Shown piece after piece: positions 2,575 through 8,157 of a DNA stretch of 8,215 nt. Position numbers and translations under genes: made by a program. How positions within the stretch are numbered: position 1 is the first letter of the stretch; each line of letters starts with the position of its first letter. This stretch comes from Candidatus Iainarchaeum sp. GTDB taxonomy: Archaea; Iainarchaeota; Iainarchaeia; Iainarchaeales; CSSED10-239. The notes beneath the pieces were generated by a model, which saw nothing but the letters and a program-made list of their open reading frames with translations, had not been told where the DNA came from and ran no database searches. The DNA lies in contig JAQVRT010000033.1 in the NCBI GenBank assembly GCA_028700905.1, forward strand, positions 1 through 8,215. Direction: 5' to 3'.

Positions 2575-3684
2575 ATGAGTTTTACAATTACAAAAAAAGA
2601 TAAAAAAACAAATGCAAGAATTGGTGTTTTTAAAACTAGTCATGGAACCATAAAGACTCCTTTTTTCATGCCAGTTGTAACTAAAGGAATTGCAAAGTTT
2701 ATAACTTTAGATACTTTAGATGAAATTAAAACACAATGTTTTATTTCAAATTGTTATTTATTATATTTAAAACCAGGAAAAGAACTTTTAGAAAAAACAA
2801 AAGGTTATCATAATTTTATAAATTGGAAGAAATCTATTTTTACAGATTCTGGTGGGTTTCAACTTAAAAATCCAAGTTTTTTTATTTCAATGAATGATAA
2901 AGGAGTTTGGTTTAAATCTCCTTTTGATGGATCTAAACATTTTATGTCTCCTGAAAAAGTAATTGAGATGCAGAATGTTATTGGTTCTGATATTGCAATG
3001 ATATTAGATGATATGCAAGATGCTAATCTTTCAAGAGAGGCTTATGAAATTGCAACTGATAGAACTATAGCTTGGGCAAAAAGAGCTATCCTTGCACATA
3101 AAAATAAGAAGCAAATGCTTTTTGGAATAGTTCAAGGTGGAATCTATAAAGATTTAAGAGAAAAATGTGCAAAAGAAATAAATAAACTTCCATTTGATGG
3201 TCTTGCAATTGGTGGACTTGCTTTAGGTGAGCCTAAAGAATCCATGCATAAAGCAATTGATTATTCTTTAAAACATTTAGATGAAGAGAAAATAAAATAT
3301 TTAATGGGTTTAGGATCTCCAGAAGACATTATTGTTTCAATTGGTAAAGGAGTTGATTGTTTTGATTCTATATATCCTACAAAAATGGCAAGACATGGTT
3401 TTATTTTTACAAGAAAAGGTCCTATTCTTTTAAAGAAAGCAAAATATAAAGATGTTTTTGAGCCTATTGAAAAAGATTGTGATTGCCCTACTTGTAAAAG
3501 GCATACACTTGCATACCTTCATCATCTTTTAAGACTTGATGAGCCAGGTGTTAAGATTCTTTTATCTATTCATAATATTAGATTTTTACATAGGCTTTTA
3601 GAAGATTCTAGAAAAGAAATAGAAAAAGGAACTTTTGAGAGTTTTCAAAAGAAATTTTTAAAAGAATATAAAAAAAGAGATTAA
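2575..3684 (+). CDS. tgt: tRNA-guanine transglycosylase, catalytic domain only, bacterial/eukaryal Tgt-like architecture
   Basis: Colinear with Tgt over the full length. Motifs seen: TDSGGFQ, FGIVQGG, GLAIGGLALGE, YLMGLGSPED, GVDCFDSIYPTKMARHG (catalytic Asp region), and the zinc site CDCPTCKRHTLAYLHHL. At 369 aa it has no C-terminal PUA or ArcTGT-type domains. Confidence 0.9.
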   Translation: MSFTITKKDKKTNARIGVFKTSHGTIKTPFFMPVVTKGIAKFITLDTLDEIKTQCFISNCYLLYLKPGKELLEKTKGYHNFINWKKSIFTDSGGFQLKNPSFFISMNDKGVWFKSPFDGSKHFMSPEKVIEMQNVIGSDIAMILDDMQDANLSREAYEIATDRTIAWAKRAILAHKNKKQMLFGIVQGGIYKDLREKCAKEINKLPFDGLAIGGLALGEPKESMHKAIDYSLKHLDEEKIKYLMGLGSPEDIIVSIGKGVDCFDSIYPTKMARHGFIFTRKGPILLKKAKYKDVFEPIEKDCDCPTCKRHTLAYLHHLLRLDEPGVKILLSIHNIRFLHRLLEDSRKEIEKGTFESFQKKFLKEYKKRD

Positions 3685-4187: not shown

Positions 4188-4856
4188 TTAAATAAGATTG
4201 TTTTCTTTAAATGAGAAATATTTTTGATTTGTAATTATTAAATGATCTAAAAAAGTTATCTCTAAAAGCTTGCAAGCTTCTTTTATTTTTGTCGTAGCTA
4301 TTTTATCTTCTCTTGAAGGATAACATTCTCCTGAAGGGTGATTGTGTGCTATGATTATTGCTTGAGCATTTTCTTTTAAAGCTTCTTTTAATATTTCTTT
4401 TTCAGAAACTAAGGTTTGATTATCTGTTCCAATAGTTATTATTTTTTTTGAAATAACTTCGTTTCCTTTTAGAAATAGTGTGATTAAATGTTCTTGTTCT
4501 TTATTTTCAATATCATGTCTTAATATTTCATATGCTGTTTTTGGAGAATAAATTTTTTCTGAAGTTTTTATATTTTTTATAGATATCCTTTTGTAAAGTT
4601 CTATGATTGCTTTTATTTGAGAGGCTTTTACAATACCAATACCTTTTATCTTAAGAAGTTGATTAATTGATATATTTTCAAGATCTTGAAAAGTATATTT
4701 TGAAAGAATCTGGTTTGATATATCTAAAACATTATATTCTTTTGTGCCTGTCTTTAGAATGATTGCTAGAAGTTCGCTATTTGATAGACTTTTTTCTCCA
4801 TCTCTTGAAAGTCTTTCAAGAGGTCTGTTTTCTGGTGCTATATCTTTTAATCTCAT
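4188..4856 (-). CDS. radC: RadC-like JAB-domain protein (UPF0758 family)
   Basis: N-terminus MRLKDIAPENRPLERL...LSNSELLAIILKTGT. It has an HhH-like LLKIKGIGIVKASQIKAIIEL and a JAB metal motif AHNHPSGECYPSREDKIAT...DHLII. The track ORF begins at 4889, but family members start at the internal Met (4856). The extra MERNIYFLFKK is probably not translated. Confidence 0.85.
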   Translation of the reverse strand: MRLKDIAPENRPLERLSRDGEKSLSNSELLAIILKTGTKEYNVLDISNQILSKYTFQDLENISINQLLKIKGIGIVKASQIKAIIELYKRISIKNIKTSEKIYSPKTAYEILRHDIENKEQEHLITLFLKGNEVISKKIITIGTDNQTLVSEKEILKEALKENAQAIIIAHNHPSGECYPSREDKIATTKIKEACKLLEITFLDHLIITNQKYFSFKENNLI

Positions 4857-4925
4857 TTTTTTAAAAAGAAAATAAATATTTCTCTCCACTAATAAATATA
4901 CTTAATCCTTTATTTAAGGGAGGGG

Positions 4926-4957
4926 AAAAAAAGGTCTTTCCATAAAAGAAAGTACCT
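4926..4957 (-). terminator. Stem-loop followed by a T7 run on the - strand (terminator-like), between repeat copy 1 and radC
   Basis: The - strand reads AGGTACTTTC-TTTTATG-GAAAGACCT then TTTTTTT CCCCTCCC. This gives a 9-bp stem with one bulged base (4932-4940 pairs with 4948-4957) and a 7-nt loop. The seven + strand A residues at 4926-4932 (4932 is also the first stem base) give the T run on the - strand; six T residues follow the stem and the seventh is its last paired base. Confidence 0.45.
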
Positions 4958-4999
4958 TTCTAATAGATGCATATTTCTAAATAATATATATCCTTTAAC

Positions 5000-5050
5000 A
5001 AATATATCTCTTTTCAAGCAGGGGGTAGCTGGCCGAGTAAATTAATTTAG
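5000..5050 (+). repeat. Direct repeat copy 1 (51 bp): AAATATATCTCTTTTCAAGCAGGGGGTAGCTGGCCGAGTAAATTAATTTAG
   Basis: Matches copy 2 at 50 of 51 positions and copy 3 at 41 of 42. It has a GC-rich core in an otherwise very AT-rich locus. Its right end overlaps the stop codon (5047-5049) of the - strand toxin-like ORF. Confidence 0.95.
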
Positions 5051-5373
5051 TATTTAAATCTCTTTTCATAACTTTTATGATTAAACCATTCTATAATAAT
5101 AGATATAATTTTAATTTGATCACTTTTAATTGTGTATACTAATCTCCATCCATTAAATAGATTATATTTCCAAAGGTTTGTAATTTTATATTTTTTAATA
5201 TATTCTTTTGACCATAATTTTTTTGAAATTTTAATTCCAGAAGTAGGATCTTTTTTAAGAGTTTCAATTGCTTTTAGAATATTTTTATACAAATCATGAT
5301 TTTCTTTAAGGTTTTCAAAATTAATTTCTAATTCTCTTGAAACAAATACAACATAATTTTCTTTATCAATCAT
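5047..5373 (-). CDS. RelE/ParE-superfamily-like toxin (type II TA toxin candidate)
   Basis: 108 aa. The C-terminal half NLWKYNLFNGWRLVYTIKSDQIKIISIIIEWFNHKSYEKRFKY has the RelE-like pattern: an aromatic-R-hydrophobic-Y strand, then a second hydrophobic strand, then a basic/His tail. Its start overlaps the upstream ORF's stop by 4 nt (ATGA at 5370-5373). Confidence 0.55.
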   Translation of the reverse strand: MIDKENYVVFVSRELEINFENLKENHDLYKNILKAIETLKKDPTSGIKISKKLWSKEYIKKYKITNLWKYNLFNGWRLVYTIKSDQIKIISIIIEWFNHKSYEKRFKY

Positions 5374-5639
5374 CTTAATTTAACACCTAAAGATAATATT
5401 TTTGAAATATTTTTTTTATCATATATCCAAATTACAATATTATCTTTATCAATAATAATCTTACTAGATTCTTCTAGATATTCAAGAATTATTTTGTATG
5501 TCTGATACATCATTTTTTTAGGTATTTTTTTCCATAATTGATAGATAGTATACTGAGAACTATATTTTTTAATAGCATTTTCAACCATTAAGATACTCTC
5601 AAGCTTTGGACTATGATATTTTATTTTTTCTTTAGGCAT
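5370..5639 (-). CDS. Small upstream partner of the toxin-like gene (putative antitoxin, possibly winged-helix-like)
   Basis: 89 aa counted from the internal Met (MPKEKIKYHSPKLESIL...). It is translationally coupled to the downstream ORF through the ATGA overlap. The track's longer version (to 5732) runs into repeat copy 2 and AT-rich promoter-like DNA, so it is probably an artefact. No family was recognised. Confidence 0.45.
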   Translation of the reverse strand: MPKEKIKYHSPKLESILMVENAIKKYSSQYTIYQLWKKIPKKMMYQTYKIILEYLEESSKIIIDKDNIVIWIYDKKNISKILSLGVKLR

Positions 5640-5714
5640 ATTATATAACTTTATATAAGTTAAATTTTTAAATATTTTTATTTGCCTAAAGTATATATTA
5701 ATATGTGTTTTAAA

Positions 5715-5765
5715 AAATATATCTCTTTTCAAGCAGGGGGTAGCTGGTCGAGTAAATTAATTTAG
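5715..5765 (+). repeat. Direct repeat copy 2 (51 bp), one C-to-T difference from copy 1 (GGTCGAG, T at 5748)
   Basis: AAATATATCTCTTTTCAAGCAGGGGGTAGCTGGTCGAGTAAATTAATTTAG. Its right end contains the stop codon (5757-5759) of the DUF1016 C-terminal reading frame. Confidence 0.95.
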
Positions 5766-6311
5766 AGCTTTTTTTAATTCTTTTTCATTTGGTAAAAATG
5801 TACTTAATTTTTTAGGAATTTTAGATAATTTGTATTCTGCTATTCCTAATGGATATTTATTATTTAATAAAGCATATTCTACTATTGTCTTATTCTTAGA
5901 TTTACATATTAATAATCCAATAGTTTCTTTATCTTCTTTTCTTTTAATATCTTTATTTATTATATTTATATAAAATCCTATTTGCCCAAGATATTCAGGT
6001 TTAAATTCAGTAATTTTTAATTCAATTACTATAAATCTTTTTAAAATATAATTATAAAATAATAAATCTATATAAAAATCTTTATTTCCAACATTAATTT
6101 TAAATTGTTTTCCAATAAATGCAAATCCTTTTCCTAATTCTATTAAAAATTTAGATATATTTGAAACAATAGATTCTTCTAATTCTTTTTCATTAAATTC
6201 TTCTTTTAAATTTAAAAAATCTAATATATAATTTTCTTTAAAATAATTTAAAATAAATTTTGAATCTTTTTTTGGAAGTGTGTTTAAAAAATTATTGTTT
6301 ATGTTTTTTTT
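5757..6311 (-). CDS. C-terminal PD-(D/E)XK nuclease domain of the DUF1016/YhcG-like gene, in the -1 frame relative to 6299-6763; no start codon of its own
   Basis: My hand translation of the - strand gives NINNNFLNTLPKKDSKFILNYFKENYILDFLNLKEEFNEKELEESIVSNISKFLIELGKGFAFIGKQFKINVGNKDFYIDLLFYNYILKRFIVIELKITEFKPEYLGQIGFYINIINKDIKRKEDKETIGLLICKSKNKTIVEYALLNNKYPLGIAEYKLSKIPKKLSTFLPNEKELKKALN*. It carries GKGFAF, the D...ELK catalytic motif and Q..FY. The frame is open for 198 codons (6353 to 5760) and has no in-frame ATG, GTG or TTG. Confidence 0.7.
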   Translation of the reverse strand, partial: KKNINNNFLNTLPKKDSKFILNYFKENYILDFLNLKEEFNEKELEESIVSNISKFLIELGKGFAFIGKQFKINVGNKDFYIDLLFYNYILKRFIVIELKITEFKPEYLGQIGFYINIINKDIKRKEDKETIGLLICKSKNKTIVEYALLNNKYPLGIAEYKLSKIPKKLSTFLPNEKELKKALN

Positions 6312-6763
6312 CTTGCATATAAATTTAATTCTATTTGATGTTCTAATAATACTTTAGACCATAAATTATTAATTGATTCTTGAATATAAAAAAGTGCTTC
6401 TTCTTTATTTTTAATTTTATCTAGAATTAATCTTATTTGATTCCAAGGTAATTGTGCCACAACTTGTGGCACATTTTCTGTTTTAAAAAATAAATAGAAT
6501 TTTCTCATATAAAATAAATTTCTTCTCGAAAAACCTTTTACATTAGGGAATTCTTTTCTTAAATCTTTTTCTATTTGCCCAATTAAATTTATTCCCCAAT
6601 TACTTTCTTTTTGTTTAAAATAAATTTCTTTTCCAAGAGTGTAATAAAGATTAATTAATTCTGAATTTACTTTTAATATTGCATTTTGTCTTGATTTAAT
6701 AATGTTTTCTTTAATTTTAGAAATAAATTCTATATATTCTTTATTAAATATATTTTTTTCCAT
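6299..6763 (-). CDS. N-terminal domain of a DUF1016/YhcG-like nuclease (truncated by a frame break)
   Basis: 154 aa. IKSRQNAILKVNSELINLYYTLGKEI...WGINLIGQIEKDLRKEFPNVKGFSRRNLFYMRKFY...VAQLPWNQIRLIL...EALFYIQESINNLWSKVLLEHQIE matches the YhcG N-terminal helical domain pattern. Full-length family members are about 340-380 aa, and this ORF stops right after an A8 run. Confidence 0.8.
   Translation of the reverse strand: MEKNIFNKEYIEFISKIKENIIKSRQNAILKVNSELINLYYTLGKEIYFKQKESNWGINLIGQIEKDLRKEFPNVKGFSRRNLFYMRKFYLFFKTENVPQVVAQLPWNQIRLILDKIKNKEEALFYIQESINNLWSKVLLEHQIELNLYARKKT
6304..6311 (-). other. A8 homopolymer (A_AAA_AAA in the 0 frame) at the DUF1016 frame junction
   Basis: The - strand reads gca aga aaa aaa aca TAA. 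Re-reading one A (-1), or adding one A, joins ...LYARKK to NINNNFLNTLPKK... and gives a protein of about 335 aa. Confidence 0.6.
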
Positions 6764-6780
6764 ATCTTATCTATTCTAGA

Positions 6781-6796
6781 TATATTTTATATTTTT
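6781..6796 (-). promoter_or_regulatory. TATA-like box upstream of the DUF1016 gene
   Basis: The - strand reads AAAATATAAAATATAT, centred about 25 nt upstream of ATG 6763. That spacing fits an archaeal TATA box driving a leaderless or short-leader mRNA. In DNA this AT-rich the match is weak evidence. Confidence 0.3.
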
Positions 6797-6800
6797 ACAA

Positions 6801-6842
6801 AAATATATCTCTTTTCAAGCAGGGGGTAGCTGGCTGAGTAAA
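6801..6842 (+). repeat. Direct repeat copy 3 (42-bp shared core), one C-to-T difference from copy 1 (GGCTGAG, T at 6835)
   Basis: AAATATATCTCTTTTCAAGCAGGGGGTAGCTGGCTGAGTAAA. After GAGTAAA it diverges from copies 1 and 2. A TTAATTT...AG remnant reappears at 6855-6867. It lies between the DUF1016 gene and the divergent nuclease gene. Confidence 0.9.
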
Positions 6843-6942
6843 AAAGATTAAATTTTAATTTCTATAGCCAATAACCTACATTAACATTATAAACTCTTTC
6901 TCTCTTAAATATATTATTAAATATAAAAAATAAGATTATATT

Positions 6943-8157
6943 ATGAGATATTCACATTCTTCCATGGAGACTTTTAGAAATTGTCCTCTTCAATTTAAAT
7001 ATAAGTATATTGAAAAAGTAGATATACCTATTAAAAATAATATAGAAGCATTCATGGGTTCAATGGTCCATAATACTTTAGAAAAATTATATACAGATCT
7101 AAAATATAATAAATTATTGTCTTTAGAAGAAGTATTAGATTATTACAATAAATCTTGGACAGATAATTTTTCATTTGATAAAGTAGAAATTATAAGAGAA
7201 GGTTATACTGAAGAAAACTACAAGTCTTTAGGTCAAGATTACCTAAAAAATTATTATAATACTTATAAACCTTTCAATCAAGGAAAAACTATTGGCCTTG
7301 AAATGCAAGTAAATATTTCTTTATATGATAAAGAAAGACAAAAAACTTATGATCTTATAGGTTATATTGATAGACTTTCTTTAGTTTCAGATAATCATAT
7401 AGAAATTATAGATTATAAAACAAATAATTCTGCAAAAACTCAACAAGAGGTAGATGTTGATAAACAACTTGCTCTTTATTCTATAGCAATTAAAGAAAAA
7501 TTTCCTTTTGTTGAAAAAATAGATCTTTGTTGGTTTTTTTTGTCAGCTGGTATAAAACAAGTTTCAACAAGAACTGTAGATGATTTAGAAAAATTAAAAC
7601 AAGAAACAATAGAAATTATAAGAGAGATTGAAGATTCTAAGCAAAAAAATAATTTTCCAGGTAAACCTTCTGCTCTTTGTGATTGGTGTGCTTTTAGGTC
7701 AATTTGTCCTTTTAAAGCACACGATGTTATTACTAAAAATCTTCCAGAAAATGAATATTTAAAAGAAGAGGGTGTCTTTTTAGTTGATAAGTATCAAGAA
7801 TTTACTGAAAAAAAGAAAGCTTTACTTGAAAAAATTGATCCAGAGATTGAAAAATTAAAAGAAGCAATAATTAATTATTCTAAAAAGAATAATTTAGAAA
7901 AGCTTTTTGGAAAAGAAAAATCTTTAATTGTAAAAGAATATTCTTCTTTTAAAATACCTGAAAAAAAATCAAAAGAAAGAGAAGAACTTGAAGCTCTTTT
8001 AAAGGAAAATAATTTTTGGCCTTTAGTTTCTGATCTTTCATATATAGAAATTTCAAATCTTATAAAAAATGGTTTTTTTGAAAGTTCTTTTAAAGAAAAG
8101 CTTTTAAAATATTTAAAAGAAGAAAAAATAAATAGACTTTACTTAAATAAAAAATAA
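6943..8157 (+). CDS. Cas4/RecB/AddB-family PD-(D/E)XK nuclease with a 4-Cys Fe-S cluster motif and a C-terminal extension of about 140 aa
   Basis: N-terminal Cys in SMETFRNCPLQFKYKYI. Nuclease motifs GYIDRL and EIIDYKT, then QLALYSIA. C-terminal Cys triad CDWCAFRSIC. Residues from about 265 to 404 are a Lys/Glu-rich, probably helical extension that I do not recognise. Confidence 0.8.
   Translation: MRYSHSSMETFRNCPLQFKYKYIEKVDIPIKNNIEAFMGSMVHNTLEKLYTDLKYNKLLSLEEVLDYYNKSWTDNFSFDKVEIIREGYTEENYKSLGQDYLKNYYNTYKPFNQGKTIGLEMQVNISLYDKERQKTYDLIGYIDRLSLVSDNHIEIIDYKTNNSAKTQQEVDVDKQLALYSIAIKEKFPFVEKIDLCWFFLSAGIKQVSTRTVDDLEKLKQETIEIIREIEDSKQKNNFPGKPSALCDWCAFRSICPFKAHDVITKNLPENEYLKEEGVFLVDKYQEFTEKKKALLEKIDPEIEKLKEAIINYSKKNNLEKLFGKEKSLIVKEYSSFKIPEKKSKEREELEALLKENNFWPLVSDLSYIEISNLIKNGFFESSFKEKLLKYLKEEKINRLYLNKK

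Follow-up and report, generated by a model that had tools for sequence, protein, structure and literature searches.

Three near-identical direct repeats, here called element E, divide a group of accessory genes into separate units in an 8,215-nt stretch of Candidatus Iainarchaeum sp. DNA (positions 1 to 8,215 of contig JAQVRT010000033.1; hereafter the window). The question raised by this locus is whether E is a site at which gene cassettes are captured, as the original prediction had suggested by likening the layout to integron cassette arrays or to tandem integrations into one attachment (att) site, or whether it is a sequence of the host that has come to surround acquired genes. We put the probability of a composite explanation of the latter kind at about 0.5: a control element of the host would have been duplicated around acquired defence-type genes by segmental duplication and unequal homologous recombination. 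The window is part of the chromosome of a Candidatus Forterrea multitransposorum-like archaeon (Diapherotrites/Iainarchaeia, DPANN). Contigs of 33-698 kb match the locus at 98-99% identity, the three-copy array is also present in the complete 839,632-bp genome CP045477.1, and the neighbouring genes are archaeal (Rpr2, S19e, L31e, eIF-6 and prefoldin).

E is 42-51 nt long in DNA of 22% G+C, and its three copies lie in the same direction on the plus strand at 5000-5050 (E1, the copy nearest RadC), 5715-5765 (E2, the middle copy) and 6801-6842 (E3, upstream of a nuclease gene). From left to right the array reads E1, a 108-aa gene and an 89-aa gene (both on the minus strand), E2, a DUF1016/YhcG gene (minus strand), E3 and a 404-aa nuclease gene (plus strand). 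A 27-nt core sequence, CAAGCAGGGGGTAGCTGGCCGAGTAAA, starts at 5015, 5730 and 6816 with 0, 1 and 1 mismatches, respectively, the annotated cores lying at 5015-5037, 5730-5752 and 6816-6838; none of 200 dinucleotide-preserving shuffles contained three such matches. The only core differences among the copies are C>T at 5748 in E2 and C>T at 6835 in E3, and the DNA between the copies measures 664 and 1035 nt, giving periods of 715 and 1086 nt. In the positions, substitutions and unit sizes the original prediction was confirmed. Its statement that the flanking DNA is unrelated needs to be qualified: on the left, the copies are weakly similar for another 20-35 nt or so, giving a 77-nt family with 81% identity, and E1 and E2 have 13 further bases in common on the right (TAAATTAATTTAG). 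This 13-nt extension covers, at E2, the last two codons and the stop codon of the DUF1016 gene, and at E1 it includes 9 nt left over from the 3' end of DUF1016. The stop codons of the toxin gene (5047-5049) and of DUF1016 (the equivalent of 5042-5044) both fall within the shared extension, but not in the same frame. In addition, every copy of E has a leftward gene 38-180 nt to its left.

The relatives of the locus, which were found through the TGT and DUF1016 proteins and are referred to by locus number, reveal the state before the genes were inserted. In L021-23, whose TGT is 90% identical to that of the window, the RadC and nuclease genes are adjacent and divergent, with one diverged E and no cassette between them. 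In L024-27 (TGT 80% identical), a decaying HATPase_c_4/HTH (helix-turn-helix) gene lies between RadC and a single E, which was left unduplicated by this insertion. Both outer flanks of the array, the one between E3 and the nuclease gene and the one on the RadC side of E1, are homologous to the flanks of the relatives' single E; thus, E3 is the ancestral copy, and E1 and E2 arose with the inserted genes. E3 occupies the position of the single E in L021-23 and L024-27 and of the nuclease-side E in a further relative, L112. The region between E3 and the nuclease gene (6843-6942, plus strand), which includes the proximal promoter and represents the ancestral right flank of E, is homologous in L021, L024 and L112, with a shared block ...ATTATAAACTCTTTCTCTC..., and the nuclease gene adjoins E in every relative examined. 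E is therefore not a foreign att site of the kind that tandem integrations would require; it is an ancestral element of the host, present in the relatives as a single copy beside the nuclease gene and also, as described below, beside orc1/cdc6.

The element is restricted to two loci. Apart from one chance match per collection (L015 and L016, both in GC-rich bacterial DNA), a scan of a metagenome collection placed the core solely at this locus, contigs of 332 kb and 698 kb included, and at a second site on the 332-kb contig, and a scan of a genome collection found it only in CP045477.1. The genome fragments at hand contain four copies of E at two loci, and neither a degenerate regular expression nor an nhmmer profile of E detected a further copy in 303 kb of related loci. 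Meanwhile, three variants of E gave no match in IMG/VR, where an attP site of a virus or plasmid was sought, and E was not found in 80 phage loci encoding KilA-N relatives. A genome-wide repeat of the repetitive extragenic palindromic (REP) or miniature inverted-repeat transposable element (MITE) type was rejected because the two scans, the regular expression and the profile search find two loci only; the core is thus locus-specific and does not show the genome-wide scatter that the original prediction had named as evidence against itself.

The same searches bear on the idea that E is a generic element, namely a minus-strand terminator, a REP/MITE-like repeat or an att site derived from a tRNA fragment. 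E does follow directly after the stop codons of two minus-strand genes, and the part GGGGGTAGCT of the core is superficially similar to the 5' end of a tRNA. However, there are only the four copies at two loci, the minus strand has no T-run after E, and E forms no stable hairpin. ARAGORN detected no tRNA, either in the window or at E in six related loci, Rfam at an E-value of <= 10 gave no match to E (one chance snoRNA match lies elsewhere in the window), and inspection by eye found neither A14 nor a D-stem partner nor GG18-19 in the element. Copy number, folding, ARAGORN and Rfam already contradict this explanation, and we regard it as highly improbable.

The repeats delimit units of accessory genes, and the content between them varies among genomes, as had been anticipated. 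The contig L008 (NPID01000025.1) is about 98% identical to the window and lacks 5051-5708, which corresponds to exactly one 715-nt period; a single hybrid repeat joins the RadC-side flank to the 3' end of the DUF1016 gene, and the toxin gene and the small 89-aa gene are gone. In L112 (DUF1016 83% identical) the order is RadC, Ea, DUF1016, a 102-aa gene, Eb and nuclease, with no toxin gene and no E between the units. The L112 102-aa protein is 76% identical to the 89-aa protein of the window, and its gene, Eb and the left flank of Eb are the orthologues of the small gene, E2 and the left flank of E2; thus, the units stand in the opposite order relative to the resident genes. Together with the empty site of L021-23, these loci provide loss, reordering and absence of the cargo.

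Such variability is also a feature of integrons. The array resembles integrons and clusters of attC sites lacking integrases (CALIN), including archaeal integrons (PMC9668308), in having single-gene units of one orientation, a repeat that starts at a stop codon and a cargo rich in toxin and defence genes, and in the loss and reordering of units between genomes. In contrast to integrons, E lacks an attC hairpin and R''/L''-L'/R' symmetry, and no IntI gene accompanies it. Single-stranded DNA folds of E1-E3 on both strands gave z-scores of 0.66 to -1.46 relative to shuffled sequences, with no conserved stem; E is therefore not attC-like, and no RYYYAAC/GTTRRRY pair is present in its sequence. No gene of a recombinase family, IntI included, was found in 21 kb around the array (L002) or in the loci of the relatives. 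The absence of attC-like symmetry and of an integrase had been noted in the original prediction and holds up under these tests; having neither an attC fold nor an IntI gene, the array is not an integron. Further differences from integrons are that E is an ancestral host element present even where cassettes are not, that an array holds two or three copies, and that the repeats vary in length and contain gene remnants.

Xer-dependent modules (integrative mobile elements exploiting Xer, IMEX, and the plasmid dif-type modules, pdif, of Acinetobacter) offer another comparison: they are small and recombinase-free, often carry toxin-antitoxin genes and are bounded by copies of a host site. A dif-type site consists of two inverted arms of about 11 bp with a 6-bp spacer (PMC2958812). 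When dif-type arms of 11 bp with a spacer of 4-10 bp were sought over the core, the best match was 6-8 of 11 positions, as in shuffled sequence. Unlike Xer modules, E lacks the 11-6-11 dif architecture, its copies are direct rather than alternating, and they lie near the origin, not the terminus.

These comparisons also bear on a broader alternative, in which E would be the attachment site of a dedicated capture system, integron-like or IMEX/pdif-like and independent of hairpins, whose unlinked recombinase would insert circular single-gene units, regenerating E on either side, and could excise and re-insert them. The E-unit-E-unit-E layout with co-oriented units and open reading frames packed tightly against E, the presence or absence of exactly one period in L008 and the different unit order in L112 speak for such a system, and a cargo of candidate defence genes (matches to PDC-S02 and PDC-S22, and a toxin) would suit it. 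It would also account for an independent insertion bracketed by E at the second E locus in another lineage (L030). On the other hand, E lacks the inverted-repeat or folded structure used by tyrosine recombinases and IntI, no locus that was fetched contains a recombinase gene, and no pool of E-linked cassettes appears in the metagenome, genome or viral collections. E is conserved where cassettes are absent, the insertion in L024-27 occurred at the same locus without duplicating E, the length that is duplicated is not constant (about 40, 51-57 and about 108 nt), and the repeats hold remnants of gene 3' ends, which are not a product of a fixed crossover site. We consider a dedicated capture system unlikely.

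Such a remnant is also present at the second locus. In L030 and L031, which come from two samples and whose Orc1 is 63% identical, a KilA-N gene lies upstream of orc1 between two direct repeats of about 108 nt. Besides E, each repeat comprises the promoter and 5' untranslated region (UTR) of the leftward gene next to it, as far as its start codon, so that the start codons of both a 55-aa gene and the KilA-N gene are reached. The orc1-proximal repeat is followed on its right by 14 nt that constitute the native 3' end of KilA-N, and the length of KilA-N matches that of its phage homologues, to which it is 52-65% identical. The 3'-end scars of DUF1016 (9 nt) and KilA-N (14 nt) argue for segmental duplication over crossover at a fixed site, and the unduplicated E of L024-27 likewise fits the duplication route and not an obligatory att mechanism. 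Because the L030 repeat carries a promoter and a 5' UTR, and because each E has a leftward gene, we matched the locus to promoter reuse (PMC3575422) and to the activation of transferred genes by tandem duplication (PMC11111574). As in those cases, a regulatory segment recurs before non-homologous genes: leftward, E with its left flank precedes RadC, the operon of the small gene and toxin, and DUF1016, and rightward, E precedes the nuclease gene and orc1. The L030 repeat consists of a neighbour's promoter and 5' UTR up to the KilA-N start, and the 3'-end remnant marks a duplication junction. Unlike promoter reuse as described, E brackets the units as direct repeats, stays homogeneous over evolutionary time and recurs at two specific loci, those of orc1 and the nuclease gene, in a DPANN archaeon.

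The fourth copy of E, on the 332-kb contig, precedes orc1/cdc6 by about 65 nt and points the same way as the gene; between it and the gene come a proximal TATA box and start region that are strongly conserved. E is kept upstream of orc1 in relatives whose Orc1 is 96, 83, 79, 73 and 63% identical, and there is a single E at this place in L009, L018, L019, L020 and L028. In the Forterrea genome the replication origin has been placed beside cdc6, and sequence variation is concentrated near the origin (PMC5905446). Because of its position, Orc1/Cdc6 is an obvious candidate for the factor that acts on E. A short block, CCTACATTA, from the conserved orc1 start region ACCCTACATTATAC (L009, about 6165-6175) recurs at 6878-6886 of the window, in the stretch before the nuclease gene and 36 nt beyond the right end of E3; the recurrence may be fortuitous, or sequence may once have passed from one locus of E to the other. 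In L030, a Fic-domain gene is inserted downstream of orc1, and directly upstream of it lie two tandem 26-nt repeats (L030 4247-4298; TATTTAAACATCTTGTGCACCCTAAC, 88% identical).

This location raises the possibility that E is a non-canonical binding site of Orc1/Cdc6, in which case the orc1 copy would serve the origin (oriC) or orc1 autoregulation, the array would be a second cluster of initiator sites, working as a datA-like titration site or a dormant origin, and the cassettes would be passengers in an origin-like region prone to recombination. The distance of about 65 nt to orc1 in every relative and the placement of the origin by cdc6, with variation concentrated nearby, are in keeping with this. 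The G-run of E resembles the 'G-string' of origin recognition boxes (ORBs; PMC1868953). In haloarchaea, secondary ORB clusters lie away from the unwinding element, and downstream clusters that titrate Cdc6 have been proposed (PMC4010727). In addition, E changes in step with the fast-evolving Orc1, reading TGGCCGAG in the Forterrea group versus TGTCCGAG in the others. However, the mini-ORB dyad GTTCCAGTGGAAAC is not present in E, and the 21 nt before the G-run (AATATATCTCTTTTCAAGCA) are unlike the published consensus (PMC1868953). A single E lies near orc1; no inverted pair flanking an AT-rich unwinding element was found there, nor was any other repeat family that might represent ORBs. All copies in the window are direct and separated by genes, and in GCA_964591795 the orc1 E and the nuclease E (L028 versus L021) are 66% alike. 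This alternative is thus a tentative one, on the unlikely side, and binding of E by Orc1 would be compatible with either duplication or a site-specific mechanism.

The architecture of E itself gives a further indication of its role. Its consensus is TATAT-N3-TTTT-N3-5-RGRGGG-N4-TGKCCGAG-WAA, with a spacing of 28-30 nt between TATAT and the invariant CCGAG across species, and the centre of the TATA-like box is about 26 nt ahead of the invariant T and the near-invariant G within TGKCCGAG. With these two distances, E matches the layout of an archaeal promoter; for comparison, the TATA box of the organism's tRNA-Gly gene precedes that gene by about 30 nt. Each E might accordingly be a rightward promoter, the alternative offered in the original prediction; its TATA box would drive short RNAs that start in the core and, at E1 and E2, extend in antisense direction into the toxin and DUF1016 genes from their 3' ends, and T-runs are indeed found 10-20 nt after E in most E3-type and orc1-type copies. 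What weighs against this is the G5 run, located where promoter DNA must melt, the retention of the GC core without TATAT in L024-27, and the fact that both orc1 and the nuclease gene have better-conserved proximal TATA boxes of their own. No conserved RNA structure and no Rfam match were found for E either. A rightward promoter driving such RNAs appears improbable to us. Because of the G5 run, the lineage without TATAT and the separate proximal promoters, E is most likely a promoter/operator-type module rather than a simple core promoter. A micro-open reading frame in E (CTG-GCC-GAG-TAA after a Shine-Dalgarno-like G-run) was considered and dropped, its length varying between copies and CTG being an improbable start codon.

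The copies of E are more alike within a genome than their history would suggest. Over 38 aligned columns, E is 94-97% identical among E1-E3 of Forterrea, 100% in L112 and 92% in L030; between species, E at corresponding positions is 71-78% identical. Since the flanks make E1/Ea and E2/Eb orthologous pairs, the duplication of E predates the split of these species, and since identity is nevertheless higher within each genome, the copies must have been homogenised since the split and evolve in concert. This may have occurred by gene conversion or by repeated excision and re-insertion, and selection for one binding factor may contribute. E1 is identical in all strains compared, and E2 has one polymorphism, C or T depending on the strain. 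The E3 core is mutated differently in each strain group (one G lost, GCAGG>GCACA, or GCTGG>GCTAG; the counterparts of E3 lie at L002 14246-14267, L008 about 10-50, L013 8066-8088 and L017 5957-5979), which is many changes for genomes that are 98-99% identical.

The comparisons show that E is ancestral, confined in its distribution, homogeneous within genomes and free of att-type structure, and that its cargo varies; how duplication and recombination built the array, and that E has a regulatory function, are inferred. The composite explanation runs as follows. E is a host cis-element of about 40 nt, normally present once in each of two divergent promoter regions in Forterrea and related Iainarchaeia: the gap between RadC and the Cas4-like nuclease gene, and the region upstream of orc1/cdc6 next to the predicted replication origin. 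Horizontally acquired genes, such as the YoeB-like toxin unit, the DUF1016 nuclease gene and, in a relative, KilA-N, would be inserted next to E. Through tandem duplication, or through unequal exchange involving two copies of E, E and the adjacent leftward promoter would then come to stand before the acquired gene, and redundant gene copies would later be lost or replaced. Each leftward unit would in this way gain an E of its own, yielding E-unit-E-unit-E. The near-identity of the copies within a genome would be kept by gene conversion, selection or both, and the direct repeats could recombine in turn, deleting the 715-nt toxin unit or duplicating and re-assorting units.

Several observations weigh against duplication of a host element as the full explanation. 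Three unrelated cargos have the same orientation and end 5-12 nt from E, and this tidy packing resembles that of true cassettes. Homologous recombination alone leaves the origin of the first duplication unexplained, and 40-57 nt of identity is a short length for it to work efficiently. Because the distance from E to the start codon varies from 38 to about 180 nt, E is not simply the core promoter of the leftward genes. In principle, the assembler could have collapsed the 57-nt repeat, so that the toxin unit would be missing from L008 as an artefact. Finally, the orc1 copy of Forterrea is 94% identical to E1 (core 23/23), and such identity of a distant copy hints at active copying or exchange between the loci; it is also a point in favour of a capture system. 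A specific form of the latter would be a hairpin-independent system in Iainarchaeia (DPANN) that stockpiles anti-virus genes at two fixed docks, beside orc1 and the origin and beside the Cas4-like nuclease gene, with each insertion duplicating the whole site of about 40 nt, as happens to the repeat in clustered regularly interspaced short palindromic repeats (CRISPR), and with Orc1, the Cas4-like nuclease or an unlinked recombinase as the enzyme. We consider this proposal decidedly unlikely.

The cargo consists of accessory, candidate defence-type genes, as indicated by the matches to PDC-S02 and PDC-S22. The DUF1016/YhcG gene (5757-6763, minus strand, stop codon 5757-5759) encodes a PD-(D/E)XK nuclease with the Pfam domains DUF1016_N and YhcG_C and matches the PADLOC candidate defence family PDC-S02 (E-value 5.9e-126); KilA-N of L030 matches PDC-S22 (E-value 1.3e-128). 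The original prediction of a DUF1016 nuclease unit is thereby upheld, with the correction that the gene of the window spans 5757-6763 and is frameshifted at a run of eight T (6303-6310), both halves being open. An intact 335-aa DUF1016 is present in L002, L003 and L013, where the run has nine T (L002 13741-13749). The T8/T9 difference could reflect an error in sequencing or assembly, or a pseudogene confined to some strains; alternatively, slippage in the run might switch a defence gene on and off. The 108-aa gene (5047-5373, minus strand), whose stop codon lies inside the extension of E1, encodes a putative RelE/YoeB/ParE-like toxin; the toxin call of the original prediction has behind it weak YoeB and ParE matches, which lie below the Pfam and NCBIfam cut-offs. 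The toxin gene overlaps by 4 nt with the upstream small gene (5370-5639, minus strand; 89 aa from the ATG at 5639), a presumed antitoxin or regulator with no family match. The 89-aa protein has no sequence relative in the PDB, and a single-sequence AlphaFold2 (AF2) model of it (pLDDT 47, order H-H-H-E-E) is of too low quality to be of use. Neither the toxin of the window nor the truncated N-terminal reading frame of DUF1016 had a record in exact-protein look-ups, and no viral relatives of DUF1016 or the toxin were found. The partner of the small protein differs between genomes, being the YoeB-like toxin in Forterrea, with the 4-nt overlap, and DUF1016 in L112, with a 34-nt gap (L112 2781-3089); judging from these arrangements, it may be a regulator or antitoxin swapped between effectors.

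The remaining genes of the window lie on either side of the array, with the RadC and nuclease genes as its resident neighbours. To the left they are, in order, the 3' end of the SRP54 gene, the genes of an A24 peptidase, an MFS transporter and TGT, an open reading frame of 150 aa, and the RadC gene (4188-4856, minus strand; Pfam RadC and UPF0758_N), after which the array begins. On the other side of the array stands the gene of the 404-aa PD-(D/E)XK nuclease, Cas4/AddB-like (6943-8157, plus strand), with a Pfam PDDEXK_1 domain and Cas4-like matches. The TGT gene (2575-3684) encodes 369 aa with a TGT domain and no other Pfam family. Its homologues in archaeal metagenome-assembled genomes are named bacterial-type tRNA guanosine(34) transglycosylase by NCBI, which is worth noting because an archaeosine TGT would be expected in an archaeon. 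In L002, upstream of SRP54, lies a longer gene of the SRP54 family (504 aa), presumably for an FtsY-type receptor, in which about eight tandem 36-nt repeats (L002 4329-4761) encode a repetitive acidic and lysine-rich N-terminal segment. Between E1 and the start of RadC, at about 4925-4965 on the minus strand, there is a hairpin followed by a T7 run (AAAGGTACTTTC...GAAAGACCTTTTTTT) beside the block GGGAGGGG. Its stem is kept in the counterparts of L112 and L021, with four of the nine pairs changed on both sides; judged by its sequence, this hairpin in the RadC leader may be a terminator or attenuator, or a small RNA. The TGT-RadC-nuclease neighbourhood of the relatives gathers other accessory genes, none of which is bounded by E: a ribbon-helix-helix (RHH) and PIN pair between RadC and a 152-aa gene in L112 (5061-5720), and, in L024, an acetyltransferase gene after TGT (10110-10676), a HicA toxin gene (16915-17190) and a type I methylase gene (HsdM) upstream of SRP54 (1405-2922).

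The genomes of DPANN archaea are very small, and little is understood of the ways in which these archaea gain defence genes and exchange them over time. The pattern described here, in which candidate defence genes lie between homogenised copies of a host element at two docks, one of them beside the gene of the replication initiator, is found in three lineages. The array combines known kinds of organization, cassettes bounded by direct repeats and promoter reuse, in a little-studied lineage. If plain recombination is responsible, it would be a natural form of promoter reuse that gives new genes both an expression signal and a built-in route of deletion; if a dedicated enzyme is responsible, it would be a new kind of archaeal cassette platform. 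In either case, an uncultivated lineage has, in E, a clearly delimited and conserved motif at its predicted origin.

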